Assembly (NCBI RefSeq): GCF_054482525.1
Contig: NZ_CM137006.1
Direction: 5' to 3' (one strand)
DNA length: 64,000 bases
Shown here piece after piece: positions 1 through 30,795 of the stretch. Each line of letters opens with the position of its first letter. Position 1 is the stretch's first letter. The position numbers were made by a program, and so were the translations under genes. The notes under the pieces are model-generated. The model ran no database searches. It was not told the DNA's origin and worked only from the letters and a program-made list of their open reading frames with translations.

Positions 1-751
1 CCAGCGCCACTAGTATCAACAGCATTTACTTTGAATGCAGGAACATGGACTTCCTGATCGCGGGTCATCCATAATGCGCCTTTTTCGCTCATGGTAACAA
101 TAATATTGTTCAGCCCTTTATCAACTAACGAACGTGCGGCCAAACGAATATGATCATAAGTATCAACCGACATACCGGTTAATATTTCCAGTTCTGTTTC
201 ATTCGGGATAAAGAAATCACATTTGCAGGCATAAGACATATCTAACTCACGCAATGCCGGAGCCGGATTTAATAACACTTCAATACCATTTTTCTTACCA
301 AACTCAATCGCGTGGTAAACTGTTTCCAGTTGAACTTCCAGTTGTAAAACGATCAATTTGCATTTTTTCAGATCTTCTGCAGCTCGATCGATATCTTCCG
401 GGGAAAGAAATTTATTCGCTCCCTTAATTATTAATATACTATTGCTCGAGTTGGCATTAACAAAGATCGGTGCAACACCACTGCTGGTACAGGGGACCTT
501 CTCAACATAAGTGATATTAATTCCCCATGATTCGAGATTACGAATAGTATTATCCGCAAAAATATCATCACCTACTTTAGTCAGCATCAGGACTTTTGAA
601 TTCAATTTAGCCGCCGCCACCGCTTGATTAGCACCTTTCCCACCACATCCGATTTTGAAGGCAGGTGCTTCCAGAGTTTCTCCTTCTTTAGGCATCTGAT
701 TAGTGTAAGTAATGAGATCCACCATATTGGAACCAATAACTGCAATGTCCA
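1..751 (-). CDS. PfkB-family carbohydrate kinase (ribokinase-like); C-terminal end lies beyond window start
   Basis: Minus-strand frame is open from the ATG at 751-749 to the window edge; my translation begins MDIAVIGSNMVDL... and has a PfkB/ribokinase-like sugar-kinase character. Not in the ORF track because it lacks a stop inside the window. Confidence 0.55.
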
Positions 752-1057
752 TTTCACTACCTCTTATAAACTTTCGCATAACAATGGTATTTAAATAACA
801 TTAGCATGTTACTTTTGCATCATTTGTGACTGAGATCGCGATTAGCACATCAACCCGATGTTTATTTAATAGACTTCCAGTCTCATCACTCAGGCCAACA
901 CGATCTAATCATAAGCAACCTAACAGGATTAATACCGAAAACTCAGCAGCCTATACCCTTTTCATTTCAAAGGGGCGGTCGTATAGTATGGTAATGAAAA
1001 CAATGTTTACTAACGCCAAAATGTTATTTTTATAACATTCTTACGGAGAGAGAGTTG

Positions 1058-1840
1058 ATGGAAACGAAGCAAAAAGAGCGTATCCGACGTTTGATGGAAC
1101 TGCTTAAGAAAACCGACAGAATCCATTTGAAAGACGCAGCGCGAATGCTGGAAGTTTCTGTAATGACTATTCGTCGCGATCTCCATCAGGAAGATGAACC
1201 TCTGCCACTGACCCTACTGGGTGGCTATATTGTAATGGTGAATAAACCCGCGCCATCCATGCCAGTAATCCATGACGTTCCAAAAAATCATCGTGATGAC
1301 TTACCTATTGCAATTCTGGCTGCCGGAATGGTTAATGAAAATGATCTGATCTTCTTTGATAATGGTCAGGAGATACCACTCGTTATAAGCATGATCCCGG
1401 ATGCAATCACCTTCACCGGTATCTGTTACTCACATCGCGTCTTTGTTGCGTTGAATGAAAAGCCTAATGTAACAGCAATACTTTGTGGTGGTACGTATCG
1501 TGCCAGAAGTGATGCTTTTTACGATGCCAGTAACTCTTCGCCATTAGACTCTCTCAATCCGCGAAAAATATTTATTTCCGCCAGCGGTGTGCATAATCAC
1601 TTTGGCGTCAGCTGGTTTAACCCTGAAGATCTTGCCACTAAGCGTAAAGCGATGAACCGTGGACTACGGAAAATTTTGCTCGCCCGCCACGCGTTGTTCG
1701 ATGAAGTGGCCTCTGCCAGCCTCGCACCGATCTCTGCATTTGACGTTCTGATTAGCGATCGTCCGTTACCGGCAGATTATGTTACGCACTGCCAGAATGG
1801 TTCTGTAAAGATCATTACACCTGATTCAGAAGACGAATGA
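1058..1840 (+). CDS. DeoR-family transcriptional regulator
   Basis: ORF 1055..1840; ATG at 1058 follows a GGAGAGAGAG Shine-Dalgarno-like stretch; N-terminal HTH typical of DeoR/GlpR regulators (LKDAARMLEVSVMTIRRDL) and a sugar-phosphate-binding-like C-terminal domain. Confidence 0.7.
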   Translation: METKQKERIRRLMELLKKTDRIHLKDAARMLEVSVMTIRRDLHQEDEPLPLTLLGGYIVMVNKPAPSMPVIHDVPKNHRDDLPIAILAAGMVNENDLIFFDNGQEIPLVISMIPDAITFTGICYSHRVFVALNEKPNVTAILCGGTYRARSDAFYDASNSSPLDSLNPRKIFISASGVHNHFGVSWFNPEDLATKRKAMNRGLRKILLARHALFDEVASASLAPISAFDVLISDRPLPADYVTHCQNGSVKIITPDSEDE

Positions 1841-2951
1841 CTTACTGAAAAAACACCACAATCTTGTTAAACATCGTCGGATTGGACTGATTACGTTGCA
1901 CTTTCACCACATATTCCAGCTTATCTATTTGGCTTATCACCTACTCCAGACGCTGGTCATCCTTGACCAGTAGCCAGATATGGCTTTTGTCGCAGTCCTG
2001 AATCGGCAGGCAGAGAATGTCTTCAACGTTAAGAGCGCGACGGGCAAAAGCCCACAAAGGTGAGTCATTACACCCGGATGGTAAACAGGCACTTCCTTGT
2101 TGTAGAAGCCGTTATATTGTCCATAATGTCTGGGTTTTTAATGCATACTGGGTAACAACCGGACGAATCTTCGAATATCACTGGCGCTGCCAGCCGGTTT
2201 GAATTCATCTCACAACCCTGCATAGAGCGAATCTCCTGCCTGCACGTCACTCCACTCCATGGTATCAACTTCACACTCTTTATCTGCGGCTAGTTTCAGC
2301 CACCAGATAAGCATCGACTATGAAAGATGAGCCATGACAACATAACGTTGGTAACGCTCTGACGCCTTAATGGAAGATGCCTGCCACCATAGGGAATGTA
2401 AACGACTGAAGTGTGGCCTTTAATGCCGTGAACGGCTCATGGTCTCCTGGCACGGTTGCCGCCCCAACCTGTAACAACATTCCACAGTACAATGTCTGTC
2501 AGAGTCAGAGCCTCCCATGCTTGTTGTAGTAACTCTACCAGTTACGAACATCCTTCCTCAAAATTGTTGTCATATCTCGCATGGAAGAAAAGATCCTGGC
2601 TAAGGAGCAACACACAACGTATTGCGGAACTTGCATATTTTTCCTGTAACTAGTGTATTACCACATATGGTAATAGCTACCTGTGTGGTTTCGCTGGATA
2701 GCAAGGGGATTTATTCGCAAGTAAAATGCCTGATAAAATACACGAATCTAGTAATCATCAATATTTACTCTGGTCGAATGACGCGTGAAGTGGACTGCCA
2801 GCAGACGCGGCCAGTGGTCCACCGCCTGCTGAACAAAACGCCAGATATCTCCCGGCTCTGAAAGTAACGCTTCGGTTATTTGCACGGAATACTACTCCTT
2901 CAGACTCTGTTAAGTTTTGTTTGTTAAACCGGTGCAGACCTGCAGGAAAGC

Positions 2952-4204
2952 ATGCCAGCACCGGCACTGTACGATATAAACATCCGGTACCGGGGATACG
3001 AATGGAATGACGAATACGCCAGAAAAGGGATAACAACCTTCCTCATAATGGTGAAATCATTCGCTATCGGTTACACGGTACGCGATGTCGCCAAAGGCAG
3101 CTGGATCGACGAATCCACGGTCACGCTACCGAAAGCGCCGCCGCTTAACACCCTGCCTCGGGCGACCAAAGTGCCGGAGCCGCAGCCGCCGCAGGAAGAT
3201 TACACCTTTGAAGGTTACCGCAACGCCGACGGCAGCGTGGGCACCAAAAACCTGTTGGGTATTACCACCAGCGTGCACTGCATGGCAGACGTTGAGGACT
3301 ACGTGGTTAAAATTATCGAACGCGACCTGCTGCCGAAATACCTGAGCATCGACGGCGTGGTCGACTTGAACCACCTCTACGGCTGTGGCGTAGCGATTAA
3401 TGTACCGGCCGCCGTGGTGCCAATTCGCACCATCCATAATATTGCGCTGAACCCAAACTTCGGTGGCGAAGTGATGGTGGTGGGCATGCAGTGCGGTGGC
3501 AGCGACGCGTTCTCCGGCGTTACCACTAACCCCGCGCTGTCGGCTACGACTCTGACCTGCTGGTGCGCTGCGGCGCAACGGTGATGTTCTCCGAAGTCAC
3601 TGAAGTACGCGACGCCATTCATCTGTTAACGCCACGCGCCATCAATGAAGAAGTGGGCAGGCGTCTGCTCGAAGAGATGGCCTGATACGATAACTATCCC
3701 GATATGGGCAAAACCGACCGCAGCGCCAACCCTTCGCCGGGCAACAAAAAGGGCGGCCTCGCCAACGTGGTAAAGAAAGCACTCGGCTCCATTGCTAAAT
3801 CGGGTAAAACCGCAATTGTTGAAGTGCTGTCGCCCGGTCAACACCCGACTAAACGCGGATTAATTTACGCCGCGACGCCAGCCAGCGATTTTGTCTGTGG
3901 CACGCAACAGGTGGCTTCGGGTATCACCGTGCAAGTGTTTACGACCGGCCGTGGTACGCCGTACGGCCTGATGGAGGTACCCGTCATTAAAATGGCGACC
4001 CGCACCGGGCTGGCGAACCACTGGTTTGATTTAATGGATATTAACGCAGGCACTATCGCTACCGGCGAAGAAACCATTGAAGAGGTGGGCTGGAAGTTGT
4101 TCCACTTTATTCTCGACGTCGCCAGCGGGAAGAAGAAAACCCTCTCGGATCAATGGGGATTGCATAACCAACTGGCAGTGTTTAACCCGGCACCGGTGGC
4201 CTGA
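2952..4204 (+). pseudogene. UxaA/GarD-family sugar-acid dehydratase (altronate/galactarate dehydratase-like), frameshifted and 5'-truncated
   Basis: Two ORF-track pieces (2952..3584, 3704..4204) and an intervening segment in a third frame together read as one dehydratase homolog; the second piece ends ...[25 protein letters not shown], typical of this family; N-terminal about 50 aa absent. Confidence 0.6.
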
Positions 4205-4231
4205 TATTCTCTTCATACATTAAGTTGTATT

Positions 4232-4259
4232 ATGCCCGATAACGCTTGTTTATCGGGCA
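4232..4259. terminator. hairpin between convergent genes (putative bidirectional terminator)
   Basis: Inverted repeat gcccgataa...ttatcgggc located between the 3' ends of the dehydratase pseudogene and the minus-strand DeoR regulator. Confidence 0.35.
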
Positions 4260-4266
4260 TAGTGAA

Positions 4267-5091
4267 TCACAGCGAAGACGCGAGCTCCCCGACCAGAATC
4301 ACTTCAACCCCAGCCTTTCGCAAGCCTTCCAGACTATCCGCAGGAATGCCTTCATCAACAATGATCATGTCGATACGTTGAGTATCAATGATCTTATGTA
4401 AACTGGAACGATTGAACTTACTGGAATCGGTGACCACGATGATCCGTTCCGCAACTTCGCACATCCGGCGGTTTAAACGGGCTTCATCTTCATTATGCGT
4501 GCTGACGCCGCGCTCCAGATCGATCGCATCTACACCAAGAAACAGCATATCGAAGTGGTAATTTTGCAGCGATTGCTCAGCCTGATCGCCGTAAAAAGAT
4601 TGCGACTGACGGCGCAAATGCCCGCCGGTCATCAGCAGCTCAACGCCTTCCGCTTCCAGCAACGCATTAGCCACGTTCATACCGTTGGTCATCGCAATTA
4701 CGTCAGTGTGCTTGCGCATCAGACGAGCAATCTCAAAAGTGGTGGTCCCGGAATCGAGGAGCACCCGATGACCTGGCTGAATCAACTCAACGGCAGCTTT
4801 CGCAACGCTGCGTTTCATCGCGGTGTTCAGTGCGCTTTTGTCTTCCACTGATGGCTCGACTGACGGCGTCGTGCTATCGCAGATCAACGCGCCACCATAG
4901 GCACGCACAGCGATCCCCTGCTTTTCCAGAAACGCCAGATCGTTGCGGATCGTCACAGTAGATACGCCATACAATGCCGACAGATCGTTAACCTGCACAC
5001 TCCCTTGCTGTCGCAGACGCTGAATGATCTGTTCTCGTCGCTCGCTGGTGCCTGTCACTCGCTTCTCACCTGAAGCGTCGGTATTACTCAT
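4267..5091 (-). CDS. DeoR-family transcriptional regulator
   Basis: 274-aa ORF; N-terminal HTH ([26 protein letters not shown]) and DeoR C-terminal effector domain; divergent from the downstream PTS operon. Confidence 0.7.
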
Positions 5092-5409
5092 AGTAAGTCC
5101 TTTCGTAAAACTTTCGTTTCATTTCGTTTTGCCTATTAACGCCTTTCTATTAAGCAAATGCAAGCCCACCTTGCCCATTGGCGCAAGCTACTCTCGTTTC
5201 ACTGACTTTCATTATGTTTCTTTTGTGAATCAGATCAGAAAACTATTATCTTTCGTTTTATTTTTATCTCACCATGACGCAGTATCAACTGAAACAAAAC
5301 GAAAGATTAATATCGCAGCAATCTGAACTGGAGAGGAAAGTGAAACATCTGACAGAAATGGTGAGGCAGCACAAAGCGGGCAAAACAAATGGAATTTATG
5401 CCGTTTGTT

Positions 5410-5678
5410 TTGCCCGCTTTGTGCTGCATGGGGCGAGCGATGTGCCGGATGAGTATGTTCGTCGCACCATTGGGCCAGGCGTCTGCAAAGTCAACGTTGC
5501 AACCGAGTTGAAGATCGCCTTCTCTGACGCTATCAAAGCTTGGTTTGCTGAAAATCAGCAGAGCAACGATCCGCGCTTTTACATGCGGGTTGGCATGGAC
5601 GCCATGAAAGAGGTGGTCAGAAGCAAAATCGCCGTCTGCGGCTCGGCAAATCGATTACGGCTACCGGCGGAGGCCTGA
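5410..5678 (+). pseudogene. class II tagatose/fructose-bisphosphate aldolase 3' remnant (GatY/KbaY-like)
   Basis: Only the C-terminal about 85 aa of ORF 5274..5678 ([16 protein letters not shown]...[12 protein letters not shown]...[17 protein letters not shown]...CGSANR) match class II aldolases; the N-terminal barrel is absent. Confidence 0.6.
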
Positions 5679-5791
5679 TCCAACAGCGTATTACCTCAAT
5701 ATTTCAAAATAATTATAAGTCCCACAAATATGAAGGCGCGTCCTTAAACCGGGTAGTGCCTTCCATTATCCTAAAATTCGAGGAGCCCTAT

Positions 5792-7363
5792 ATGACACAA
5801 AAAAAATCTTTTAAATCAAAATTATGGGAATTTTTACAAAGTCTGGGGAAAACCTTTATGTTCCCGGTTTCGCTTCTTGCCTTTATGGGATTGCTGCTGG
5901 GTATCGGTAGTTCAGTCACCAGCCCTTCCACCATTACTAGTTTTCCCTTTCTGGGCGGCGAATTTACCCAGTTGACCTTTGGCTTTATCGCTATGGTCGG
6001 TGGCTTTGCTTTTACCTATCTGCCGCTGATGTTTGCCATGGCGATCCCCATGGGGCTTGCCAAGCGCAACAAAGCGGTCGCTGCCTTTGCCGGGTTCGTT
6101 GGCTACATGCTGATGAACATGAGCATTAATTATTACCTGACGGCTACCCACCAGCTTGCCGACCCCGCCACCATGAAACAGGTAGGACAATCGATCGTGC
6201 TGGGCATTCAAACCCTGGAGATGGGGGTATTAGGTGGCATTGTGGTTGGGGTTATCACCTATTTTCTGCATGACCGTTTTCAGGACACGGTTCTGCATGA
6301 CGCCTTCGCCTTCTTTAGCGGCATTCGTTTCGTGCCGATTATTACCGCGCTCACCCTGTCGCTGGTGGGTCTGTTCATTCCCATGCTGTGGGAATACGTC
6401 GCGCTGGGCATCGCGGGCATTGGGCATATCATCCAGAGCACCAGCGTTTTCGGCCCCTTCCTCTACGGCGTAGGCGTGCTGCTGCTTAAACCTTTTGGTC
6501 TGCACCACATCCTGCTGGCGATGGTGCGTTTTACCCCAGCAGGCGGCATTGAAATGGTAAATGGCCATGAGGTCGCCGGGGCGCTGAATATCTTCTACGC
6601 CGAGCTCAAAGCCGGCCTGCCGTTTAGCCCGCACGTTACCGCGTTTCTGTCACAAGGGTTTATGCCGACCTTTATCTTCGGTTTACCCGCCGTGGCTTAC
6701 GCCATCTACCGCACCGCGCGTCCGGAAAATCGGCCGGTCATTAAGGGGTTGCTGCTTTCCGGCGTGCTGGTTTCCGTCGTCACCGGTATTTCAGAGCCGA
6801 TTGAGTTCCTGTTCCTGTTTATCGCCCCCGCGCTTTACGCCTTCCATATCGTCATGTCTGGCCTGGCGCTGATGGTAATGGCCCTGCTGGGAGTGACCAT
6901 CGGCAATACCGACGGCGGCATTCTGGATCTGCTGATTTTCGGCGTGATGCAGGGAATGTCGACCAAATGGTATCTGCTGTTCCCGGTTGGTATTGCCTGG
7001 TTTGCCATCTACTTCTTTGTCTTCCGCTGGTACATCCTCAAACACAACATCAAAACGCCGGGCCGCGAGGTGGATGTTCAGGGGGCACAGCAAGCCGTCG
7101 AGGCGAACACCCGCGCGCGCGGAAAATCAAAATACGATCACGAGCTTATCCTACGTGCGCTCGGAGGTAAAGAGAACATTGAGTCGCTTGATAACTGTAT
7201 TACCCGCTTGCGTCTGGTGGTGAAAGATATGGGCCTTATCGATCAGCAGGCGCTGAAAGCGGCAGGCGCGTTGTCAGTGGTGATGCTTGATGCGCATAGC
7301 GTGCAGGTGATCATCGGACCGCAGGTACAGAGCGTCAAAACCGGCATTGAAGCCTTAATTTAA
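5792..7363 (+). CDS. PTS EIICB component, glucose/maltose family (MalX-like paralog)
   Basis: ATG at 5792 preceded by GAGGAG; long membrane EIIC domain and C-terminal EIIB with the phosphorylatable Cys motif NCITRLR; colinear similarity to E. coli MalX as I recall it. Confidence 0.85.
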   Translation: MTQKKSFKSKLWEFLQSLGKTFMFPVSLLAFMGLLLGIGSSVTSPSTITSFPFLGGEFTQLTFGFIAMVGGFAFTYLPLMFAMAIPMGLAKRNKAVAAFAGFVGYMLMNMSINYYLTATHQLADPATMKQVGQSIVLGIQTLEMGVLGGIVVGVITYFLHDRFQDTVLHDAFAFFSGIRFVPIITALTLSLVGLFIPMLWEYVALGIAGIGHIIQSTSVFGPFLYGVGVLLLKPFGLHHILLAMVRFTPAGGIEMVNGHEVAGALNIFYAELKAGLPFSPHVTAFLSQGFMPTFIFGLPAVAYAIYRTARPENRPVIKGLLLSGVLVSVVTGISEPIEFLFLFIAPALYAFHIVMSGLALMVMALLGVTIGNTDGGILDLLIFGVMQGMSTKWYLLFPVGIAWFAIYFFVFRWYILKHNIKTPGREVDVQGAQQAVEANTRARGKSKYDHELILRALGGKENIESLDNCITRLRLVVKDMGLIDQQALKAAGALSVVMLDAHSVQVIIGPQVQSVKTGIEALI

Positions 7364-7374
7364 CAGGAGGAGTG

Positions 7375-8550
7375 ATGTTTGATTTCGACAAAATCATTGA
7401 GCGTCAAAGTGATAAGTGCCGTAAATGGGACCATACCTTTGTTTGCTCGCGTTTCGGTGACGTCCCGGAGTCCTTTATCCCCCTATGGATAGCCGATATG
7501 GATTTCACCTCACCACCTGCGGTGATTGACGGTTTCCGGCGCATCGTGGAGCACGGCACCTTTGGTTATACCTGGTGCTTTGACGAATTCTACGACGCGG
7601 TCATTGCCTTCCAGCGCAAACGTCATCAGGTTGAGGTGGAAAAGTCGTGGATCACGTTGACCTACGGCACCGTATCCACGCTGCACTACACGGTTCAGGC
7701 ATTCTGCAAACCGGGTGACAGCGTGATGATGAACACGCCGGTCTACGATCCTTTTGCGATGGCGGCACAGCGCCAGGGCGTGCAGGTACTGGCTAACCCG
7801 CTGCGCGTGGAGGAAAACCGCTATCAGCTTGATTTTAATCTGATAGAAGAACAGCTCAAAACCCACCGTCCAACGCTGTGGTTCTTCTGCTCGCCACATA
7901 ACCCGTCCGGCAGGATCTGGCGCGAGGAAGAAATACGCCAGGTGTCCGATCTCTGTCAACGCTACGGCACGATTCTGGTGGTCGATGAGGTTCACGCTGA
8001 ACACATTCTGGATGGCAAATTCGCCAGTTGTCTCACCTCTGGCTGTGCCGCCCAGGACAACCTGATCGTGCTCACATCGCCCAACAAAGCGTTCAATTTG
8101 GGCGGGCTGAAAACCTCCTACTCCATGATTCCAGACGACTCGCTGCGCCAGCGCTTCCGCCAGCAGCTCGAGAAGAACTCCATTACCTCGCCCAATTTGT
8201 TCGGGGTATGGGGAATCATTCTGGCCTATCAACACGGTCTGCCCTGGCTCGACGCGCTGAACGGTTATCTGCAAGGCAACGCCCGGTATCTGGCGGATGC
8301 CCTCCAGACCCACTTCCCGGCGTGGAAGATGATGAACCCGGAATCGTCGTATCTGGCGTGGATAGACGTAAGCGCGGATGAGCGTAGCGCAACGCAGCTA
8401 ACCCAACATTTCGCACGGCAGGCAGGCGTGGTCATAGAAGACGGCAGCCACTATGTACAAAACGGCGAAAACTACCTGCGGATTAATTTTGGCACCCAGC
8501 GCTACTGGCTGGAGCAGTCCATTAACCGAATGCTGAAAAATGACAAATAA
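7375..8550 (+). CDS. PLP-dependent C-S lyase / aminotransferase class I-II (MalY/PatB-like)
   Basis: MFDFDKIIERQ... N-terminus and overall similarity to MalY; immediately downstream of the PTS gene as in the malX-malY arrangement. Confidence 0.8.
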   Translation: MFDFDKIIERQSDKCRKWDHTFVCSRFGDVPESFIPLWIADMDFTSPPAVIDGFRRIVEHGTFGYTWCFDEFYDAVIAFQRKRHQVEVEKSWITLTYGTVSTLHYTVQAFCKPGDSVMMNTPVYDPFAMAAQRQGVQVLANPLRVEENRYQLDFNLIEEQLKTHRPTLWFFCSPHNPSGRIWREEEIRQVSDLCQRYGTILVVDEVHAEHILDGKFASCLTSGCAAQDNLIVLTSPNKAFNLGGLKTSYSMIPDDSLRQRFRQQLEKNSITSPNLFGVWGIILAYQHGLPWLDALNGYLQGNARYLADALQTHFPAWKMMNPESSYLAWIDVSADERSATQLTQHFARQAGVVIEDGSHYVQNGENYLRINFGTQRYWLEQSINRMLKNDK

Positions 8551-8563
8551 GGATCTTACCCCG

Positions 8564-10453
8564 ATGAAGAAAGTGCTCACTCTCTCACTGCTGGCTCTCT
8601 GCGTTTCTCATGGTGCAGCGGCAGCAAACTACGCGCTCAATAACGACAATATTGCCCTCTTGTTTGATGATACAAACTCAACGGTCGTGGTGAAGGACAA
8701 CAAGGCTAACCATCCGCTCACGCCGCAGGAGTTGTTCTTTCTGACGCTGCCGGATGAGAGTAAAATCCACACCGCGGATTTCAAAATCAAGCACGTCGAA
8801 AAGCAGGATAACGCGATTGTCATCGACTTTACGCACCCGGATTTTAACGTCACGGTGAAGCTGAACCTGGTGAAGGGAAAATACGCCAACATCGGCTACA
8901 CCATTGCCGCCGTGGGGCAGCCGCGCGACGTCGCTAAAATCACCTTCTTCCCGACCCAAAAACAGTCTCAGGCCCCTTACGTAGACGGCGCAATCAATAG
9001 CTCTCCGATCGTTGCGGACTCGTTCTTTATCCTGCCGGATAAACCGATCGTGAATACCTACGCCTATGAAGCCACCACCAATCTCAACGTAGAGCTGAAA
9101 ACGCCGATTCAGCCAGAGGCGCCGGTCAGCTTTACTACCTGGTTCGGCACTTTCCCGGAAACCAGCCAGCTGCGCCGCAGCGTGAACCAGTTTATTAATG
9201 ACGTACGTCCACGCCCATACAAGCCTTATCTGCACTACAACAGCTGGATGGATATCGGCTTTTTCACTCCCTACACTGAACAGGATGTGCTGGGGCGTAT
9301 GGACGAGTGGAACAAGGAGTTCATTACGGGCCGCGGCGTGGCGCTGGACGCCTTCCTGCTGGATGATGGCTGGGACGATCTGACCGGACGCTGGCTATTT
9401 GGCACGGCATTCAGAAACGGTTTTAGCAAAGTACGGGAGAAAGCCGACAGCCTGCACAGCTCCGTTGGGCTATGGCTTTCACCGTGGGGTGGCTACAACA
9501 AACCGCGCGACGTTCGCGTTTCGCATGCAAAAGAGTATGGGTTCGAAACCGTGGACGGCAAACTGGCGCTGTCGGGAGCGAACTACTTTAAAAACTTCAA
9601 TGAGCGGATCATCAAGCTTATCAAAAACGAGCACATCACCTCATTTAAACTCGACGGGATGGGTAACGCCAGTTCGCATATCAAAGGCAGCTCGTTCGCC
9701 TCAGATTTCGATGCATCAATCGCCCTGCTGCACAATATGCGCAGCGCAACCCCGAATCTGTTTATCAACCTGACCACCGGCACCGACGCCAGCCCGTCCT
9801 GGCTGTTCTACGCTGATTCTATCTGGCGTCAGGGAGATGACATTAACCTGTATGGTTCCGGTACGCCGGTGCAGCAGTGGATGACCTACCGCGATGCCGA
9901 GACGTACCGCTCCATTGTCCGTAAAGGCCCTCTGTTCCCGCTGAACTCGCTGATGTACCACGGGATAGTCAGCGCCGAGAATGCCTATTACGGGTTAGAG
10001 AAGGTGCAAACGGACAGCGACTTTGCCGATCAGGTCTGGAGCTACTTCGCGACCGGCACCCAGCTGCAGGAGCTGTATATTACCCCGTCCATGCTGAACA
10101 AGGTGAAGTGGGATACGCTGGCGAAGGCTGCAAAATGGTCGAAGGAAAATGCCAGCGTGCTGGTTGATACCCACTGGATTGGCGGCGACCCAACGGCGCT
10201 TGCCGTGTACGGCTGGGCATCCTGGAGCAAAGACAAAGCCATTCTCGGTTTGCGCAACCCATCGGATAAGCCACAGGCCTACTATCTGGATTTGGCTAAG
10301 GATTTCGAAATACCGACAGGAGACGTGGCGCAGTTTAGTCTGAAAGCGGTATACGGCAGCAATAAAACCGTGCCCGTTGAGTATAAAAACGCGACGGTGA
10401 TTACGTTGCAGCCGCTGGAAACGCTGGTGTTTGAGGCGGTGCCCGTTAACTAA
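8564..10453 (+). CDS. secreted glycoside hydrolase-like protein (alpha-galactosidase-like DDGW motif)
   Basis: Signal peptide MKKVLTLSLLALCVSHGAAAA; LLDDGWDD motif reminiscent of GH27/36-type hydrolases; start alternatively at 8540. Confidence 0.5.
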   Translation: MKKVLTLSLLALCVSHGAAAANYALNNDNIALLFDDTNSTVVVKDNKANHPLTPQELFFLTLPDESKIHTADFKIKHVEKQDNAIVIDFTHPDFNVTVKLNLVKGKYANIGYTIAAVGQPRDVAKITFFPTQKQSQAPYVDGAINSSPIVADSFFILPDKPIVNTYAYEATTNLNVELKTPIQPEAPVSFTTWFGTFPETSQLRRSVNQFINDVRPRPYKPYLHYNSWMDIGFFTPYTEQDVLGRMDEWNKEFITGRGVALDAFLLDDGWDDLTGRWLFGTAFRNGFSKVREKADSLHSSVGLWLSPWGGYNKPRDVRVSHAKEYGFETVDGKLALSGANYFKNFNERIIKLIKNEHITSFKLDGMGNASSHIKGSSFASDFDASIALLHNMRSATPNLFINLTTGTDASPSWLFYADSIWRQGDDINLYGSGTPVQQWMTYRDAETYRSIVRKGPLFPLNSLMYHGIVSAENAYYGLEKVQTDSDFADQVWSYFATGTQLQELYITPSMLNKVKWDTLAKAAKWSKENASVLVDTHWIGGDPTALAVYGWASWSKDKAILGLRNPSDKPQAYYLDLAKDFEIPTGDVAQFSLKAVYGSNKTVPVEYKNATVITLQPLETLVFEAVPVN

Positions 10454-10520
10454 ACGCTTGTCCCAATGAGCAGACCGGGTAAGGCGCAAGCGCCACCCGG
10501 CAAAACCGGCAGCAGGGGCT

Positions 10521-10830
10521 TATTCCCCCTGCTGTTCCAGCGCATACTTATACAACGCATTCTTCTTCACTCCGTGGATTTCTGCCGCCAACGCCGCCGC
10601 TTGCTTCAACGGCAGCTCAGCCTACAACAGCGCCAGCGTACGCAGCGCATCGGCGGGCAGTTCGTCATCCTGGGCTTTATGGCCTTCAATAATCAGCACC
10701 ATCTCGCCTTTGCGAGGGTTTTCATCTTCTTTGATCCACGCCAGCAGTTCGCCGACCGACGTGCCGTGGATGGTTCCCAGGCGGGTGTTCATCACATAAC
10801 GGTATAGGGCATCATTCAGCGGAGCCATTA
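10521..10830 (-). pseudogene. rsmI (yraL)-like 16S rRNA methyltransferase 3' remnant with in-frame amber codon
   Basis: Minus-strand translation gives ...[86 protein letters not shown]; matches the RsmI C-terminus with CAG to TAG at 10622-10624; the 5' two-thirds is missing. Confidence 0.6.
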
Positions 10831-10932
10831 ACAGGCAGCACGCGTCAACCCAGTTGGAGAGTAACGCCGTCATTGGGTTATTTCTTTCCATAAAAATACG
10901 CAAACATGCCCCATACCTCCTGTTCCAACAGC

Positions 10933-12369
10933 TCAACCTTTCTTAATCATTGCCGAAATTGCGCCACAGTCATGAAACTTATCAAAACCAGTGGTGCCTT
11001 TGATATATTCAGTAACCAGAGTACCAATAATCTTAACCGTTTCTTTGTTCGTTGTGATAAAGCCCAGTGGCATCGTTACAGGCAATATTTCGGGTTGAGA
11101 AATATGATAGATAACGGCAGATAACTCATCCTCAAGATGAAGGATCTCAACATTACCATCTAACAGCCCCTCAACTAGTCCTTTAGCGTACTCATGGAAT
11201 TGCCCAAGTTCATACTTCCACTGTCTGGCAACCCGAGCATCAGCTGCATCCCGGACAGGTACGTACAGCACCGGTTTATACAGCTGCTTATCCTTCGTAG
11301 CCGACTTGCTAAGAAAATTGCTCAGGCTTGAGATAAATCGAATGCTTTTTGACCAGTAGGGATCTGATGGTGCCACCCAGATGAACGGGCTACCTCCATA
11401 ATCAGTTTTATCTCTGATACGCTGATTGAGCGCTGGTGCCAGAGCTTTCTGCAGCTTTTCCCAGTTGTTTTTAGAATAAACCGGACCTAAAAAAGTCGTT
11501 CTGCCTGAGGACGAGTATTCTTCCAGTGCTTGCATATCTTTGATAAACAACGGATTAAGTCGATTCGTTTTAGAGTCAAACAGCTTAAGCGTAAGGTCAT
11601 CGTTAATGGATTGCATGGCCTTAAAAATACTCATGGTATTGTTATGCCGTGATAACCTGGCTATCTCAACAGCCATTAACTCATGAACACATTCCGAACT
11701 ATTTAACTGTTCATAGTCTTCACGCTCGACAGCCTTACCATCGCTATCCATTTTAAATTCCGTTGTTAAACGGAGTGGTATTTGCCGCAGCTTATTAACA
11801 GAATTAACGGTATAGATAGAAGGTTGTTCTTTTCCGACCTGAACCTGCAGGTGAGACAGGTAACCTTTATCCAGGATTTGATTAAACTGGTATTGAAAGT
11901 GCTTCTCAACCAGTTTCTCACTTTGAGAAATGTTGTTGTCATCAACCTTTAATGTTACCCCTCCCCTCCAGTGGTCCTGAAAAGCCTGGTTGCTGAAGCA
12001 ACTAAATGTGGCTAAATCAAAGGATAAGGTACAGCCACTGTCCTGAATAGTTGAAAGATGCGGTATCTCGCCAACCTCTGAAAAATAGCCATTTGATTTG
12101 TCTGTTAAGGCCAGTCTGCCGTCTGAGGAGAGCGTCAATTCGCCACGCTGCACAAGATCGGAAATCGCCTCCTCTGTCTCACGGTGGGTCAGGCCGAAAT
12201 AGGTTGCTATTTGTGCTTTGCTCATCGAAGCTACATGAACAAGTCTCAGCACAAACTCCCGGATAAATGGCAGCCCCTTCTGGGAAACATAGGAAAACTG
12301 AATGTTAAACCTCTGTGCTGGCAGCAGGAAGTCAACCTCATGATAGGTAACTTTGTTATCAGATATCAT
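10933..12369 (-). CDS. hypothetical protein (478 aa), translationally coupled to the upstream helicase-domain gene
   Basis: ATG at 12369-12367 overlaps the TGA (12368-12366) of the upstream gene (ATGA overlap); no domain recognised by me. Confidence 0.7.
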
Positions 12370-15300
12370 TTCTTTTTGCCTCCCTGCTGAGCAGAGAGGA
12401 ACCTGTATCCAGCTTCCTGACCTCGCTCAGCCATATAACTTACAACGTAGCCTAATGGCAATTCTTTATTGTTTCCCTTCCAGATATCGGCATTACCCAC
12501 AATCAACAGTCGATCCATTGCGCGTGACATCGCGACATTTATACGGTTTGGAACGCGTAAGAAACCTGGGCTATGCTGCTTATCCGAACGCGTCAGTGAC
12601 AGGATAATGATCCGATTTTCCTTTCCCTGATAACTGTCAACAGTGTCAATTTTAACAATGTCCTTAAATCCCTCGCTCCAGATTTCCTGATTGAATTTCT
12701 GACGGAGTAACCGCTTTTGTTCGGCATACATACATATCACGCCGATAGCGGCTTCATCTTTGCTAACAAGTTTTGAAAGCTTAGCGACAAATTCTTCATT
12801 CTCTGACACCTGTTTAAGAACAGAAATAATCTCGTCAGCTTCACATCGGTTGTAAATGCTTGTTCCGCGATCTTCAAGATGATGTGCTCGGTGGCCCTGA
12901 TTAGCAGTATCAAGCCAGGTTACAACGCTACGTAACGCTTCCGGAGCTTGCTGATAGACATCCGGAATTGCCCGTACTCCATTCAGAAGCTTCCCGTCAT
13001 AAAACGTCTTCGATACGAGATTACCAATCGGTGGAGCCATACGATACTGGGTCATCAAAGCTGCACTCGTCTGCGCACCATAAGCAGAGTTGAAGGCTCG
13101 GGCAAAGTCACTTCGTAATACCTCGTCAATTTCAGTGCGGGAGTTATTGATACCCAGCTTCCTCGCTAATGCCGCCTTGTGGGCATCTGAGTACAATGGA
13201 GGAAGCTGCATGTGGTCACCCACCAACAGGACACGCCGGGCTGACTGCATTGCAATGGCCAGCTCACTTGAAATCGAGCGCGCCGCCTCATCAATAATCA
13301 CCCAGTCATAGATATTCTCCTGAATGCCAATGTGCCCTTGTCCAATACCAACGCATGTGCCAGCCACTAACTGCCTGGAGCGCGAATAAAACTCGTCCAG
13401 GTTCACTCGCTCTCCCGACATAGCATCCTGCATATCACGGGATATTTTAGCTAATGCTTTTACTCGTCTTGCCTCATCAGGTCTGACACCATACTCTGTA
13501 CATAGCTTGGAAATCAGAATGTCTTTTGCTGCTGAGACCTTCACGCCATTGTCCAAGTTAATCCCATACTCCTGACTCAGCTTAGAGCGGATGGAAAAAT
13601 CGAGTTCGACTGCAATATCTTTCAGTTCATTGCTCTCATTTGAATCCGTTAAATTGTTAACCTGATAGAGCAATTTCTCAAGGTGATCGATTTGTCTGAA
13701 CAAATTGAGCTCTGCAAGAACAACACCCGAAATAAATCCCGGCTCAAGACCAATAGCTTCACTCAATGCTTCAACACGGTACTTAATTTCAGCATTGAAG
13801 AGTTCGCGCTTCTCTGTTGTGATTGCGTGTGAGTACACATCTTTTAAGCCAGGGGAAACGGCTCCCTCTCGGTTGCTGAACCTGACAACGTCCAACTCTG
13901 TACCAAGCCGGGAACAATGCTTTCTGATACGCTCGGCCGCTGTATTCACAGCCTCGTGTGACTGGCTGACCAGTAAAATGCGTTTGGTATTCTGTTTCTC
14001 GATCAGGTAGTGAACAAAGGCCGCGATGAACTCGGTTTTACCGGTCCCCGGTGGCCCCTGAAGCAGGGAGAGAGGGCCATTATTGACCAGTTTGTTAAAC
14101 GCCTTTCTTTGCTGTTCATTCAGACTGATCTTGTTTCCGTGCTGATCTTCACGGTCGTATCTGGCAAAATCGGTATCGCTGAGAGTGATACCATAATTTT
14201 GAGCCGCCTGTTTGCAGGATGGATCGAACAAGTCAATTAAGTCAGGCAGCACACTTTCTCGATCTAGGAGACGTTCCAGTGCGCGTTTACGTTTCTGATA
14301 AGATGCACGAGTCGGCCTTGTACGGAAGAAGACAATATCAGAATCCTTCAGCTTGAAGGCTGCTGAACTAACTTTGACAAGACGAATCTCTTTGAGCTCT
14401 GACTTCTTAAGTGACACTTCACCAATAAATCGCTCAACACCTTCCTGATCGACCTGTAAGGCTTCGACTTCATCACTACTTCTGAAAGCACCGAGTGGAT
14501 CAACATCAGCAGAGTAAGGGAGAAGAAGCTCTCCATGAGCATCTGCAACCGGGACCACTTCACCGCTGATTTCAATGTTTGGATAAGATTCTGTTTCAGT
14601 ATCCAGAATGGCGCGCCACAGTTTCACTGTTGGGATTTCCAGCACTTCTCTTAAAGAAGGTTCAAGCGTCTGCTTATCAAGCCTTGCAAAGGTATCTTTT
14701 AGCTGAAGCGTAAGTGGCTCTTGTACCTGAACATCTTCAGTTGCGGCAATCAACTCGATTGCCCGCGCAAAAGATTCTTCTTCATTAAGCAATACTGTCA
14801 ACGCCGACAGATCCTGCGGACTGCCGGGAATAATCTTGATGCCAGTATCAATTTCGAACTGGCTTTCATCAATATCTTGCTTACGAATTGTGACGCGAGC
14901 CCGTGGCCTGAAGCCATGAACCAGCGTCTTCTGATCTTTGTTGAACACCGCAGTAAAACTGCCACCAATCCCAGAGAAAGTCACATTTACTTCAGCTGGC
15001 GCTTTAGGATTTGACTTAACTTTGACATACAGATGCCCGTTATCAGGCAGAATAGAGATTATTTCATCGGCATTTCCTGCAGTAATCTCTATCAGGTCTT
15101 GTTCTGGCACCAGGTCATTACTATCTATCGCTTTTTTAAAGCGGCCTAAATCCTTAAACCCAAAAACCGGATCTTCCAGCTCTGCTCGGATAGCATTCGC
15201 GATTGTCGGATAAATGTCTGATTCCAGCCCCCATGACATGCCTAGCAACTCGCAGGACATCTTCATCACTGCATAGTTGTCACGTTCAAAAGAAGTACAA

Positions 15301-15682
15301 TTATCAATGTATTCAGGGCTGTAACTGTGATTTTTAGGTTCGTCACCGGACGGTGAAAAATCGGGGATATCGATGAGAAAAAGCAAACGGCTCTGTGTCT
15401 CAAATATCACATTGCCAGGGTGGATGTCCCCGTGAGAAACACCCAGACCATGTAAGTGCTCAACGGCGGCGACAAACTTACCAATGAGGTCGATTTTTTC
15501 ATCATCGGGGACCGCTATTTTATCCCAGGTTTCTCCCTGTACCTGATCCGTGACCATATATAGGCTTGATGATTTTGATGCGATACCGAATTCACGAATT
15601 TGAGGTAGATACGTTGTTTTAACTGAAGAAAGCCGCTCAACCTGCTTTAAAAACTTCAGAACCTGGAAATTAATTGACGGAT
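12366..15682 (-). CDS. 3' portion of IS629-split gene: protein-kinase-like C-lobe plus SF1 Upf1-like helicase
   Basis: ORF track 12366..15557 (1063 aa); the frame stays open upstream to the IS629 boundary at 15682 (my manual translation). Motifs HGDIHPGNVIF and IDIPDF (kinase-like), GPPGTGKT (Walker A), VIIDEAA (Walker B), DTVDSYQGKE and VAMSRAMDRLLIVG (SF1 helicase). Confidence 0.75.
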
Positions 15683-15736
15683 TGAACCGCCCCGGGAATC
15701 CTGGAGACTAAACTCCCTGAGAAAGAGGTAAACAGG

Positions 15737-16063
15737 ATGACTAAAAATACTCGTTTTTCCCCCGAAGTCCGTCAGAGGGCGATTCGTATGGTTCTGGAAA
15801 GTCAGGGCGAATATGACTCACAGTGGGCGGCAATTTGTTCCATTGCCCCAAAGATTGGCTGTACACCGGAGACTCTGCGTGTCTGGGTACGCCAGCATGA
15901 GCGGGATACCGGAGGCGGTGATGGCGGGCTCACCACCGCTGAACGTCAGCGTCTGAAAGAGCTGGAACGTGAAAATCGTGAACTGCGCCGCAGTAACGAT
16001 ATCCTTCGCCAGGCTTCCGCTTATTTTGCGAAGGCGGAGTTCGACCGCCTCTGGAAAAAATGA
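15737..16063 (+). CDS. IS629 transposase OrfA
   Basis: 108-aa [25 protein letters not shown]... with HTH and leucine-zipper-like C-terminus; IS3-family OrfA. Confidence 0.85.
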
Positions 16064-16950
16064 TGCCACTGCTGGATAAGCTGCGTGAGCAGTACGGGGT
16101 CGGACCGCTATGCAGCGAACTGCATATTGCCCCGTCAACGTATTACCACTGTCAGCAACAGCGACATCATCCGGATAAACGCAGTGCCCGTGCGCAGCGC
16201 GATGACTGGCTGAAGAAAGAGATACAGCGCGTATACGATGAAAATCATCAGGTGTACGGTGTGCGTAAAGTCTGGCGTCAGTTGTTACGGGAAGGTATCA
16301 GAGTGGCCAGATGCACTGTGGCACGTCTCATGGCGGTTATGGGACTTGCCGGTGTTCTCCGGGGTAAAAAGGTCCGTACGACCATCAGCCGGAAAGCCGT
16401 TGCCGCAGGCGACCGCGTAAACCGTCAGTTCGTGGCAGAACGACCTGACCAGCTGTGGGTGGCTGATTTTACTTACGTCAGCACATGGCGGGGCTTCGTC
16501 TATGTGGCGTTCATCATTGATGTGTTTGCCGGATACATCGTGGGGTGGCGGGTCTCATCGTCTATGGAAACGACATTCGTGCTGGATGCTCTGGAGCAGG
16601 CGTTATGGGCCCGTCAACCGTCCGGCACAGTCCATCACAGTGATAAAGGTTCTCAGTATGTATCGCTGGCCTACACACAGCGGCTTAAGGAAGCCGGATT
16701 ACTGGCATCAACAGGAAGTACTGGTGACTCGTATGACAACGCGATGGCGGAGAGCATCAATGGCCTTTACAAAGCGGAGGTAATACACCGTAAGAGCTGG
16801 AAAAACCGGACAGAAGTGGAGCTGGCCACACTCACGTGGGTGGACTGGTATAACAATCGACGATTGCTGGAAAGGCTGGGCCATATCCCACCGGCAGAAG
16901 CAGAAAAAGCTTATTATGCTTCCATCGGAAACGATGATCTGGCAGCCTGA
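16060..16950 (+). CDS. IS629 transposase OrfB (DDE integrase domain)
   Basis: 296-aa ORF overlapping orfA; DDE transposase core; normally expressed as an OrfAB fusion by frameshifting. Confidence 0.85.
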
Positions 16951-16992
16951 GTTCACAGATAAAACACTCTCCAGGAAACCCGGGGCGGTTCA

Positions 16993-18649
16993 GATCGTAT
17001 CCCTGTCCCCCAACATTCAGCCAAGCCTTCACGAGCCTTCCTTTCGAGATATAGACTTCTTTGTCGACTGTTTCGACCTGAAACTGAAAGCCATCGTCTT
17101 CCGGGTATTGACGAGCGTGATTGATAGCATGTCGGTAAGGGTCAAGCTCAGTATCATCAAATGTTGGAATATCCTTGCCAGCAGGTTCGGCTTGTTTCAG
17201 GGCATCAAAGAATTCTGTTGCAGAAGTGAATTTTGCGGCAACGGCATCCCGTAATACAGATGAATACCAGTGCTGGCTGTTTAGCATGTTGTCCTGTACT
17301 TTCTCCAGACTCTTTGGCGACATGCGCATACCGCTAAATAAGTGCCAGGCGACAAGGCCCAGAGTATGAACATCTTGCTGAAAAGGCGTAAGCTCGCCCT
17401 TATCAAGCATGTCTTTTACGTGGACTGCACCTACGGATAAAAGCTTACGGTAATCGCCAACCGTTCCGGCTGGCTGGTGGTAAGCCGAAATAAAGTTCGA
17501 AAGAGCAACTTCTTTTGAAGGTGAAATCCACAGACTGTGATCGGCGACATCCCTGTGCGCAATTTTCATCTCATGGAGATCACTAAACTTTGCAATGAGC
17601 AGTTTCACCACATTCAAGCGGTCCATATCAGAAAAGTTCTTACCATATTTTCCGATAAACTCATTAAACCGGACATGACCCGGCGGAACTTCGTAGACTT
17701 CGCTATACTCGGCCGTCACCTCGTCTTTCTGAAAACTCGTCAAAGACCTGAGACAGTGGTTATACAGGTCACGATTCTGGTGATTGATGTGCTGTAACAC
17801 TTCGCGCTCACGTGAAACAATCTGAGCTCGTCCTTCCGGGGTATTCGCTTTCGTTCCCGTTATATTTCTAAAATTCCATACTCTGAGTAGCGCTTCGCTG
17901 TTCGTTGATATCTCAGATTTTGCCAGATATTCTCGATACACCTTTTTAGGATGTTCGAAAATCATATCATTAGCTTCATAGCCATTAACTCTCAAGGCTT
18001 TTGGTGCCGTCTGAGGCCCTAGGAACAAATCATCGAAAAGATGGAAATCCTTGTTAAGAACCTTGGTAGCTGGGTGCGGTTTGAAATAGTTATTGAAGCT
18101 CCCGCGATCGGCAAACTTCAGGAAATCTTTTAACGAGATCGTATGGCGCCGTTGTTCCTCCGGCAGCGCGCTGAAATCTGCATTGCCGGTCATCACAACA
18201 AAAAAATGAACAATCGGGATATAGCCTTTGTTCGTAAAACGGTCTACCAGACGCTTGAGTTTTTTGTCCAGCATGAATTTTTTGCTACGAGTCACGCTTA
18301 CTGGCGAGCGCCCCATGTTCTTATCACCTTTAAACCAAGTATCTCCGCGTGCGGTTACAGGCTGATGGTTCCAGTCTTTCAGTTCAACAATGATCACGTT
18401 GCAGTGTGTTACAATAACTAAATCGAATTCCCCCTCTTTTTTTGCCTCAACAAATCGAAAACCTGCATAACCTTTCCAAGGGAACATTTCATTGCCGATA
18501 AAACCATAGCTTTTTAGCTGCTCACTAATTGAACCGCTACGGAAAGGCTTGTCAGGCTTAGATACGTTGACTGAAAAAGCAGCTTTTATTTTCTCGATAG
18601 CCAATACTTCCTGTTCTTGTAAGCCACCATCCCACATTTCTACTTCCAA
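16993..18649 (-). CDS. 5' portion of IS629-split gene: NERD nuclease-related domain plus protein-kinase-like domain
   Basis: TTG start at 18649 preceded by AAGGAG; NERD-like signature EFDLVIVTHCNVIIVELKDW; kinase-like HRD at KIAHRDVADHSLWI and DVHTLGLVAWHLFSG. The annotated ORF runs on into IS629 (to 16832), so its last about 50 codons are IS-derived. Confidence 0.75.
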
Positions 18650-22147: not shown

Positions 22148-22347
22148 TAATGGGTTAGTAAAATAGCAGCAAATCCCGCTACAATAGCGAAAATAGCTGC
22201 TATTCAGACCTGATGCTCTGAGAAATACAGAGCATTTGTAGATCTGATGTTTAATAAACCGATAAGGTTAATTCAGTGAAGACTGTATTATTCACCACGA
22301 AATATCATTCATATTTCTCATTCTTAATACCTCCAGAAATTATTTCA

Positions 22348-22680: not shown

Positions 22681-22771
22681 ATGCTGGAAATTCTGTTTAT
22701 CAATTAAACTTCTGGCTAAATTGTTCTTATGCTTCTTTTTCCTCCTGAGGTGATCACGTGATGACAAAAAC

Positions 22772-23080: not shown

Positions 23081-23229
23081 AGTGTGGTGAACTGTCGTTA
23101 CAGTTTGTATTCCCCGGGTAAATTTGTCTGCGTAAAAAAATGGGTTGAGCAAAAAGACAATAAATAATTAAAAATCAATATGATAGAAAACGACAGCATT
23201 AGTGTTATTTTACTTTTCCCTTATCGCTG

Positions 23230-30711: not shown

Positions 30712-30795
30712 TGTCAGTTATCATCTTCGGTTACGGTTATCGGCAGAACGCCCTGCCGCTGACAAGAGCTTATTTGCCTGACCAATCTACTCCAC

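Follow-up and report, generated by a model that had tools for sequence, protein, structure and literature searches.

A decayed aga block, probably foreign and patched by core sequence, next to a deoK module on an Escherichia coli island

The first 10.8 kb of the 64,000-nucleotide stretch of DNA analyzed here (contig NZ_CM137006.1 of assembly GCF_054482525.1; the whole stretch is called the window) consist of two unrelated cargo modules of a genomic island that adjoin each other, namely the end of a deoK operon and the remains of a block of aga genes. The DNA is that of Escherichia coli, positions 1–10,453 matching many complete E. coli chromosomes over their full length with 99.9–100% identity. 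How did the aga block come into its present state? In the explanation that we prefer, and to which we assign a probability of about 0.7, a foreign aga block was captured, patched by core sequence and eroded, leaving a trio of genes, malX', patB' and ast', behind the promoter Pz and beside the deoK module. The block from garD to rsmI would have been captured from another enterobacterium onto the island, its segment of garD 3' part, agaR and kbaZ 5' part would subsequently have been replaced by homologous recombination with the E. coli core, and the block would then have decayed by deletions, which in the allele of the window (type A) left a wrecked garD and a deletion of about 7 kb that joins kbaZ to kbaY. 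A previous sequence-only reading had regarded positions 1–10,453 as one mosaic sugar-utilization locus, a view that has to be given up because the first of the two DeoR-family regulators found there belongs to a separate, intact deoK operon. Gene anatomy was derived from a listing of open reading frames (ORFs), the RefSeq annotation of identical genomes, and Pfam and NCBIfam profile searches, and yielded the following features for the aga block.

3035–4204, plus strand: pseudogene of garD (galactarate dehydratase), left end of the block; from tblastn with E. coli and Enterobacter GarD, blastn, and Pfam matches of fragments to GD_AH_second and GD_AH_C.
3780–5409: tract resembling the E. coli core (garD 3' part, agaR, kbaZ 5' part) with 96–100% identity; from sliding-window identity and blastn.
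4267–5091, minus strand: agaR, intact ORF of 274 amino acids (aa); NF007316 575 bits (cut-off 351), NF040755 463 bits (cut-off 260).
5092–5339: divergent control region of agaR and kbaZ (Pr/Pz) with AgaR operator repeats of the CTTTCGTTT type.
5340–5678, plus strand: KbaZ::KbaY chimeric ORF, in frame; from translation, junction alignments and comparison with intact loci (in the gene listing two short pieces of aldolase genes, 5340–5414 and 5421–5678).
5792–7363, plus strand: malX', intact, 523 aa, enzyme IICB (EIICB) of the phosphotransferase system (PTS), glucose/maltose family; PTS_EIIC (PF02378) and PTS_EIIB (PF00367), TIGR02004 722.8 bits versus a cut-off of 632.2.
7375–8550, plus strand: patB', intact, 391 aa, pyridoxal phosphate (PLP)-dependent C-S lyase of the PatB/MalY family; Aminotran_1_2, TIGR04350 363.7 bits versus a cut-off of 340.
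8564–10453, plus strand: ast', intact, 629 aa, exported protein of the Ast/YacT 'enterotoxin' family with a signal peptide, starting MKKVLTLSLLALCVSHGAAAA.
10520–10781, minus strand: 3' fragment of rsmI (16S rRNA methyltransferase), a pseudogene and the right end of the block; from blastn against E. ludwigii and E. coli rsmI and from RefSeq (there also 10520–10774).

The gene context of homologues of the 629-residue protein led to chromosomal loci of Enterobacter ludwigii, a second Enterobacter and Yokenella regensburgei that are intact and in which the genes are ordered garK-garR-garL / garD / agaR (minus strand) / kbaZ-agaVWEF-agaA-agaS-kbaY-malX'-patB'-ast' / rsmI-lpoA, the continuation into rsmI-lpoA being seen in E. 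ludwigii and Yokenella. Alignment with intact homologous loci, which the sequence-only reading had proposed, showed by blastn that the window is colinear with them apart from two gaps, one inside garD and one from nucleotide (nt) ~70 of kbaZ to nt ~616 of kbaY. Positions 3065–3478 and 3475–4204 align to garD, and 4292–5409 to agaR together with the intergenic sequence and some 70 nt at the start of kbaZ. The last segment, 5421–10781, starts at kbaY nt ~616, takes in malX', patB' and ast', and ends in the 3' part of rsmI. A single captured block thus unites the dehydratase gene and agaR with the aldolase stubs and the three intact genes. The block spans garD nt ~186 to the rsmI 3' end and thus extends some 330 nt beyond position 10,453, where the earlier reading had ended, and it was probably taken from the chromosome of a non-Escherichia enterobacterium, a statement that falls under the probability given for the explanation as a whole. 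We know of no published description of the origin of this cargo, which RefSeq already annotates gene by gene.

The lesions of the block lie in garD and in the aga genes proper. The dehydratase gene had been described as frameshifted, which is correct, and the damage goes further, since two deletions, a frameshift and a nonsense codon are present: about 72 N-terminal codons are gone, some 70 internal codons were lost between two similar VMV(I/V)G..C motifs with the join at ~3475–3488, the frameshift lies at ~3536–3572 (near codon 302), and a stop follows at about codon 350. A class II aldolase had been said to survive merely as a 3' tail. Indeed its last 85 codons remain, but they are no separately decayed gene; the tail is the right side of a single in-frame deletion scar of about 7 kb that reaches from codon 23 of kbaZ to codon ~206 of kbaY. 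In the resulting chimera KbaZ codons 1–23 (5340–5409) are followed, after four codons at the junction, by the ~85 C-terminal codons of KbaY (5421–5678), the latter covering positions 205–277 of the 277 in the Pfam family F_bP_aldolase. Lost with the deletion were the remainder of kbaZ, agaVWEF, agaA, agaS with the Ps promoter, and the 5' part of kbaY. Of the PTS for N-acetylgalactosamine (GalNAc; agaVWEF), the deacetylase AgaA, the deaminase AgaS and the aldolase KbaY/KbaZ there are thus only 23 kbaZ and 85 kbaY codons left, and the locus is therefore a remnant and not a functional aga operon.

Identity to the resident core locus of E. coli, which runs garD-prlF-yhaV-agaR-kbaZ...rsmI, changes abruptly along the block. 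According to blastn, positions 4285–5409 are 98.7% identical to it, and outside the core-like tract the values are 78% for the 5' part of garD, 77% for the kbaY tail and 85% for the rsmI fragment. In a sliding profile of 100 nt the left switch point falls at ~3750–3800 and the right one at the deletion junction, and the outer parts of the block are roughly as far from E. coli as from Enterobacter (75–88%). Since a core-like tract (3780–5409) is embedded in far more divergent flanks (75–85% identity to E. coli and to Enterobacter), the block is a true mosaic, and the simplest reading of these identity values is that the tract represents a recombination or gene-conversion patch that replaced the foreign segment after capture. 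Between the garD remnant and agaR, a spacer of ~70 nt within 4205–4284 matches neither the E. coli core nor Enterobacter, whereas both of its sides are E. coli-like; either the patch therefore came from a source without prlF-yhaV or there were two separate conversion tracts.

How widespread is the block, and does it decay in the same manner everywhere? Of 5426 complete E. coli genomes, 275 contain the entire 10.45 kb at a coverage of at least 80%, 311–312 contain the aga-remnant part, all with at least 99% identity and the same lesions (type A), and 555 have any homologue of malX'-patB'-ast' at megablast level. Carriers of type A also keep the true core aga locus, so that each record is matched in two places. 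A sister allele (type B) with ~94% identity occurs in some 190 further genomes, for example those of UTI89, Nissle 1917, ATCC 25922 and KC-Dl-1. Its outer ends are those of type A, garD nt ~186 on one side and rsmI followed by a remnant of an IS66-family insertion sequence (IS) on the other. Its lesions are its own: agaR is frameshifted, kbaZ is joined at nt ~291 to agaS at nt ~800, and kbaY is joined at nt ~311 to the last ~80 nt of malX' (malX1493); patB' and ast' are intact. A single capture followed by independent decay accounts for both alleles. The proposal that this DNA was acquired and is decaying is thereby well founded, as it lies inside an integrase-bearing island, only ~6% of the complete E. 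coli genomes carry it, the same lesions recur in hundreds of independent assemblies, and a sister allele exists with other deletions. In a third island type just a 3' fragment of an ast homologue is left. An island different from that of the window, in strain MEI005 (13998–28541), contains a 3' pseudogene fragment of the ast family (88% nt identity) and a second malX-like EIIC together with nanE, as well as a vpe PTS operon and a deoK operon beside a Dpd (7-deazaguanine DNA modification) system; from island to island the same modules recur in new combinations.

The three surviving genes had been read as an intact MalX-like permease, MalY-like lyase and signal-peptide protein that may form one operon. 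They are full length and free of internal stops, and with gaps of just 11 and 13 nt they look like a single transcription unit. Their lengths equal those of the Enterobacter and Yokenella orthologues and the ratio of non-synonymous to synonymous substitution rates (dN/dS) to other genera is 0.03–0.09, which together argue against free decay. MalX' has no EIIA domain, is 53% identical to MalX of E. coli K-12, and shares 95% aa identity with its Enterobacter orthologue at a dN/dS of 0.03. For patB' this ratio is 0.06–0.09 to other genera and 0.26 to the type B allele, and for ast' it is 0.10 between the two alleles. PatB' is 30% identical to K-12 MalY, and the lysine of its SPNKAFN motif aligns with the lysine of MalY SGSKSFN, which we take to be the PLP-binding one. 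We make no claim that malX' is the classical pathogenicity-island (PAI) marker malX of CFT073 used for extraintestinal pathogenic E. coli (ExPEC), since no more than 555 genomes match at megablast level and core malX has ~65% identity to malX', over a fragment.

From where would these genes be transcribed? The presence of two intact DeoR-family regulators (1058–1840 and 4267–5091) was correctly seen by the sequence-only reading, and the second of them is AgaR. Island AgaR is 97.8% identical in aa sequence to core AgaR with a dN/dS of 0.04. Moreover, positions 5092–5339 differ from the E. coli core by 2–3 mismatches over 248 nt, and all repeats of the operator type, which are predicted AgaR sites, are kept, also in Enterobacter. 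AgaR is known to bind Pr, Pz and Ps, and GalNAc induces Pz and Ps (PMC3668189). On the plus strand no terminator-like site was found in 5340–5792. As Ps is deleted and no plus-strand terminator precedes malX', we infer that malX'-patB'-ast' are transcribed from Pz under the control of AgaR. The three genes would lie ~450 nt behind a Pz that is repressed by AgaR and inducible by GalNAc, and the trio could serve as an AgaR-controlled accessory operon that leans on the core aga pathway of the host.

The last gene of the trio had been described as a secreted hydrolase. The protein has a signal peptide and a predicted glycosidase fold and belongs to the Ast/YacT 'enterotoxin' family. Identical copies of ast' are named 'enterotoxin' or 'alpha-galactosidase' by RefSeq, depending on the genome. 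The family is large, as one search gave 4034 matches and another 1673 representative clusters, and its members go under the names enterotoxin, YacT, alpha-galactosidase, alpha-amylase family and, for a Dickeya homologue, 'Predicted exported alpha-N-acetylgalactosaminidase'. Ast' is 77% identical to Yersinia YacT (100% coverage) and 53% to an Aeromonas bestiarum 'enterotoxin' (93% coverage). An AlphaFold2 (AF2) model made with 48 diverse homologues is confident (pLDDT, the predicted local distance difference test, 93.6; pTM, the predicted template modeling score, 0.91) and predicts an N-terminal beta-sandwich, a (beta/alpha)8 barrel and a second, C-terminal beta-sandwich. Foldseek searches of the PDB with this model returned at the top enzymes of glycoside hydrolase (GH) family 36, led by the galactosamine (GalN)-specific alpha-galactosaminidase FpGalNase of Flavonifractor plautii (9ayu, 8x1b, 9awt; E ~1e-25) with alpha-galactosidases of GH36 behind it, and then GH97 and GH31, the GH36 matches ranging from 1e-25 to 1e-19. 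The sequence contains the motifs DDGW (267–270), KLD (362–364) and WRQGDD (421–426), which at the level of sequence probably correspond to the sugar-binding, nucleophile and acid/base motifs of GH27 and GH36. Among the 48 homologues, some with as little as 28% identity, W270 and D271 never vary, and K362, D364, W421, R422 and D426 hardly ever do.

Operon context in other genera points in the same direction. At the yacT locus of Yersinia, at the ast locus of Aeromonas and in Klebsiella aerogenes, the homologue follows directly after kbaY and ends a complete aga operon, and this position as the last aga-operon gene suggests an exported glycosidase of the alpha-GalNAc/GalN type. On the strength of model, motifs and context, we regard Ast' as most likely an alpha-glycosidase that is exported and belongs to the GalNAc/GalN regulon, an assignment partly anticipated by existing source names, and its toxin label is doubtful. 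Because of the aga-operon context in other genera, GalNAc/GalN-type glycoconjugates are likelier substrates than the maltose-type alpha-glycosides that had been suggested before. In the preferred explanation Ast' would be a periplasmic retaining alpha-glycosidase of the GH36-like clan that acts on glycoconjugates and frees GalNAc, GalN or another, related sugar in alpha linkage. MalX', for which Crr would supply the EIIA function, would take up and phosphorylate a released product, and PatB' would carry out a PLP-dependent beta-elimination on it or on a linked amino-acid moiety.

Might the pseudogenes be artefacts of sequencing or assembly, or the locus ancestral core DNA, as the sequence-only reading had considered? 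We found no point that speaks for either, and we consider the probability negligible. The same lesions shared by hundreds of genomes, together with a sister allele that differs, exclude sequencing error as well as core ancestry: the 10.45 kb recur at 99.9–100% identity in hundreds of genomes that were sequenced independently from various hosts and countries, no more than 555 of the 5426 genomes have any homologue, the module sits at different chromosomal sites in different strains, and the core garD-prlF-yhaV-agaR-kbaZ locus, the true aga locus, is kept elsewhere in each strain. A more serious proposal, which we nevertheless hold to be unlikely, is that malX', patB' and ast' are neutral hitch-hikers in a dying block and are not usefully expressed. 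The surrounding genes are all pseudogenized, type B has already lost malX', one type A strain carries an IS66 insertion in the locus, the third island type has been reduced to its ast fragment, and the module is present in fewer than 10% of genomes, all of which would suit such passengers. However, patB' and ast' are intact in both of the independently decaying alleles with inter-allele dN/dS values of 0.26 and 0.10, below neutrality; the big deletion is in frame and the Pz/operator region nearly unchanged; and ~312 type A genomes are at least 99% identical without further lesions. A further proposal is that the 629-residue protein is, as annotated, a secreted cytotonic enterotoxin of the Ast/YacT type, which would make the locus virulence cargo instead of a sugar-utilization remnant. 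The identities to YacT and the A. bestiarum protein, the attenuation of a Yersinia frederiksenii yacT mutant in Galleria and the link of Ast to fluid secretion (PMC6246891), and the location of the gene on a pathogenicity-type island (PMC7545054) favor this idea, which is nonetheless very improbable in our view, given the confident GH36-like three-domain model with conserved catalytic-type motifs, the more than 1600 representative clusters, many of them multi-domain proteins of up to ~3,000 aa as is typical of secreted carbohydrate-active enzymes, the closing position of the gene in the GalNAc catabolic operons of Aeromonas and Yersinia, and the name 'alpha-galactosidase' that some RefSeq genomes give to identical copies. 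The phenotypes described in the literature might also arise from a glycosidase that attacks glycans of the host.

For the explanation by capture, patching and erosion, it should be noted that several observations weigh against it or against the function proposed for the trio. The best nt match reaches only ~84%. A simple sigma-70 scan flagged no plus-strand promoter in 5092–5339, and Pz is placed there solely by near-identity to the characterized core region. The trio is not an obligate unit: a malX'-patB' pair separating kbaY from ast is confined to some Enterobacteriaceae, the loci of Aeromonas, Yersinia and K. aerogenes have neither gene, and ast is on its own in Dickeya and Vibrio. The IS66 insertion and the loss of malX' from type B are both compatible with a dispensable module. 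As to Ast', toxin-like phenotypes of Ast and YacT have been published (PMC6246891), searches of Pfam, NCBIfam and PDB sequences with the 629 residues gave no match, and the structural identity to GH36 is only 10–14% with template modeling (TM) scores of 0.45–0.63. Lacking Pfam and PDB sequence matches and at this level of identity, Ast' is at best a distinct family within clan GH-D, and the model is accordingly filed under 'GH36-like fold' and not as a member of GH36. A bolder combination of these ideas appears rather improbable to us. It would make the Ast/YacT proteins no toxins but a distinct, uncatalogued family of exported GH36-like alpha-GalNAc/GalN-ases of the AgaR regulon, let MalX' and PatB' degrade a glyco-amino acid from mucin, and turn the island allele into a mucin-scavenging addition to the aga pathway of the host that is wired to Pz. 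The imported compound might for example be GalNAc-alpha-O-Ser/Thr (Tn antigen), from which PatB' would take off the serine by PLP-dependent beta-elimination, yielding GalNAc-6-P, pyruvate and ammonia. If true, this route would hint at the role of MalX and MalY in K-12, which has long been unknown.

The neighbor of the aga block on the left is the deoK module, and the following features of it and of the island have coordinates outside the block.

1–752, minus strand: deoK-type ribokinase/deoxyribokinase gene of deoK-deoP-deoX, truncated at position 1 so that its 5' three quarters are present; PfkB and TIGR02152 matches.
1058–1840, plus strand: intact DeoR-family regulator of 260 aa, divergent from deoK; HTH_DeoR and DeoRC domains.
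1842–2068, minus strand: pseudogene fragment resembling ilvN (acetolactate synthase small subunit), filler between the modules; RefSeq annotation of identical genomes.
10782–10867: short IS66-family remnant directly after the rsmI fragment.
26184–27386, minus strand: tyrosine integrase at the island end, followed by clpA-clpS; ORF list and annotation of matching genomes.

The regulator at 1058–1840, whose best NCBIfam match is DeoR with 230 bits, slightly below the cut-off of 244, is the regulator of the deoK operon and lies outside the aga remnant. RefSeq annotation of matching genomes gives the order rbsK-fucP-aldose epimerase upstream of the window start, and together with the domains found in the window these neighboring genes make the gene set of the deoK operon complete. 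Pathogenicity islands of E. coli are known to carry this operon as a cargo module (PMC7545054, PMC6455142).

Where in the chromosome does the island sit? In the window the integrase is followed by clpA-clpS, a junction also found in strain 266917_2; from the K-12 map we take clpA-clpS to be the serW side of the chromosome. The same island end adjoins ycdU/dgcT/pga, the serX side, in E-ge-1 and KC-Dl-1, and the UTI89 copy lies inside the published coordinates of PAI-UTI89-serX (PMC7545054). Sites serW and serX are alternatives for such islands (PMC7545054, SRL PAI). The island is probably one with a P4-type integrase that uses the paralogous serW and serX tRNA sites, which is again part of the explanation graded as a whole. 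ARAGORN detected no tRNA gene in the window, and infA, aat and serW are missing from it, as had been remarked before, since the island runs on past the window start. Compared with E-ge-1 and AH65, the window has a 1310-bp IS3-family insertion at 15683–16992 and diverges after 27782.

The remainder of the island offers several observations of its own. After the aga block a Mokosh-type defense pair occupies 10933–18649 on the minus strand, with MkoB at 10933–12369 (E 2e-151) and MkoA split into 12366–15557 and 16832–18649 by that IS3-family element, which contains an ALIL frameshift pseudoknot (16018–16134) and a transposase ORF (16060–16950); MkoA is whole (4959 nt) in E-ge-1, AH65 and 266917_2. 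Between integrase and clpA, positions 27788–27870 hold two 28-nt clustered regularly interspaced short palindromic repeats (CRISPR; CTGCCTGTACGGCAGTGAAC core; Rfam CRISPR-DR4, 50 bits) with one spacer, which look like a residual array, and there are no cas genes nearby in the window. At the junction of island and core (27540–27790) two direct repeats of ~50 nt (CCCCTCACCGCCATATTCAAAGAAGAGCTCGTACGAAAGTGCGAGC followed by a T-run) are found, the counterparts of which are annotated as 'RtT sRNA' in matching genomes and which Rfam does not report at its gathering threshold. Strain 266917_2 carries a second small integrase element between clpS and cspD (30658–40538 of the stretch of that strain), which with its ClpP-like prohead protease/capsid fusion, primase, single-strand binding protein (SSB), Icd-like protein and integrase looks like a phage satellite or P4-like element; ORFs of similar sizes are present at ~30400–40000 of the window (for example 32524–34437, 36019–37851 and 38452–39741). 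Upstream of the window start, matching genomes (1–3274 and 6143–9515 of two stretches) encode a DcuA-type C4-dicarboxylate transporter, an aspartate/glutamate racemase and a LysR regulator annotated as 'HypT'; transporter and racemase are AspR-DcuA, a pair already reported from the SRL PAI of serX/serW. The upstream island part of AH65 also has DarTG and a type I restriction system.

Taken for what it is, the locus is ordinary, well-populated E. coli island cargo in decay and no new system. It provides a worked example of how such cargo evolves: capture across genera, patching by recombination with the paralogue already in the chromosome, and erosion in which each of two alleles acquired deletions of its own. 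Of most use beyond that are this two-allele decay series and the evidence against the 'enterotoxin' annotation, which for the Ast/YacT family is a probable mis-annotation that has spread through thousands of genomes. Given the glycosidase fold and the position at the end of GalNAc operons, virulence screens that count Ast/YacT proteins as toxins may mislead. To judge from gene content, the surviving trio could offer some E. coli lineages access to sugars derived from host glycans under the control of AgaR.

Among known systems, the aga loci of Enterobacter and Yokenella are closest in layout, having the same gene order and gene lengths and orthologues with aa identities of 91–95% for MalX', 85–86% for PatB' and 84–91% for Ast'. 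In contrast to the island copy they are intact and stand at their native chromosomal position, and since their nt identity to the window is just 78–84%, Enterobacter and Yokenella are not the direct donors. The E. coli core aga/gam regulon (agaR / kbaZ agaVWEF agaA / agaS kbaY agaBCD agaI, 70 min) shares with the island copy the repressor (97.8% aa identity), the Pr/Pz region (2–3 nt differences) and the flanking genes garD and rsmI. The island copy differs from it as a second copy on a mobile island in which all transport and catabolic genes are deleted, in its distal genes, malX'-patB'-ast' in place of agaBCD-agaI and the yra fimbrial genes of the core, and by the absence of prlF-yhaV, which in the core separate garD from agaR.

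The pairing of an EIIA-less EIICB permease of the glucose family with a PLP-dependent C-S lyase of the PatB/MalY type that follows it is also that of malI-malX-malY in K-12. There the proteins are only paralogues (53% and 30% identity) and are under MalI, whereas the island pair is predicted to be under AgaR and, unlike that of K-12, is followed by the gene of an exported predicted glycosidase. Ast, the heat-stable cytotonic enterotoxin of Aeromonas hydrophila, and YacT of Y. frederiksenii are homologous to Ast' over the full length, similar in size and provided with a signal peptide (PMC6246891); toxin-like activity was reported for the Aeromonas and Yersinia proteins, whereas the modeled fold, the motifs and the operon context of E. 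coli Ast' suggest a GH36-like enzyme of the GalNAc regulon. With GH36 alpha-galactosidases and FpGalNase, Ast' has in common the predicted three-domain architecture around a (beta/alpha)8 core and, at the level of sequence, motifs of the DDGW, KxD and RxxxD types. Finally, the deoK operons of PAI II AL862 and the LAC PAI resemble the one adjoining the aga block in their ribokinase-like gene, permease, mutarotase, divergent DeoR-type regulator and location on a tRNA-associated island (PMC7545054, PMC6455142), and in the part inside the window, that is the 5' part of the kinase gene and the regulator, no difference from the deoK operon of E. coli PAIs was detected.

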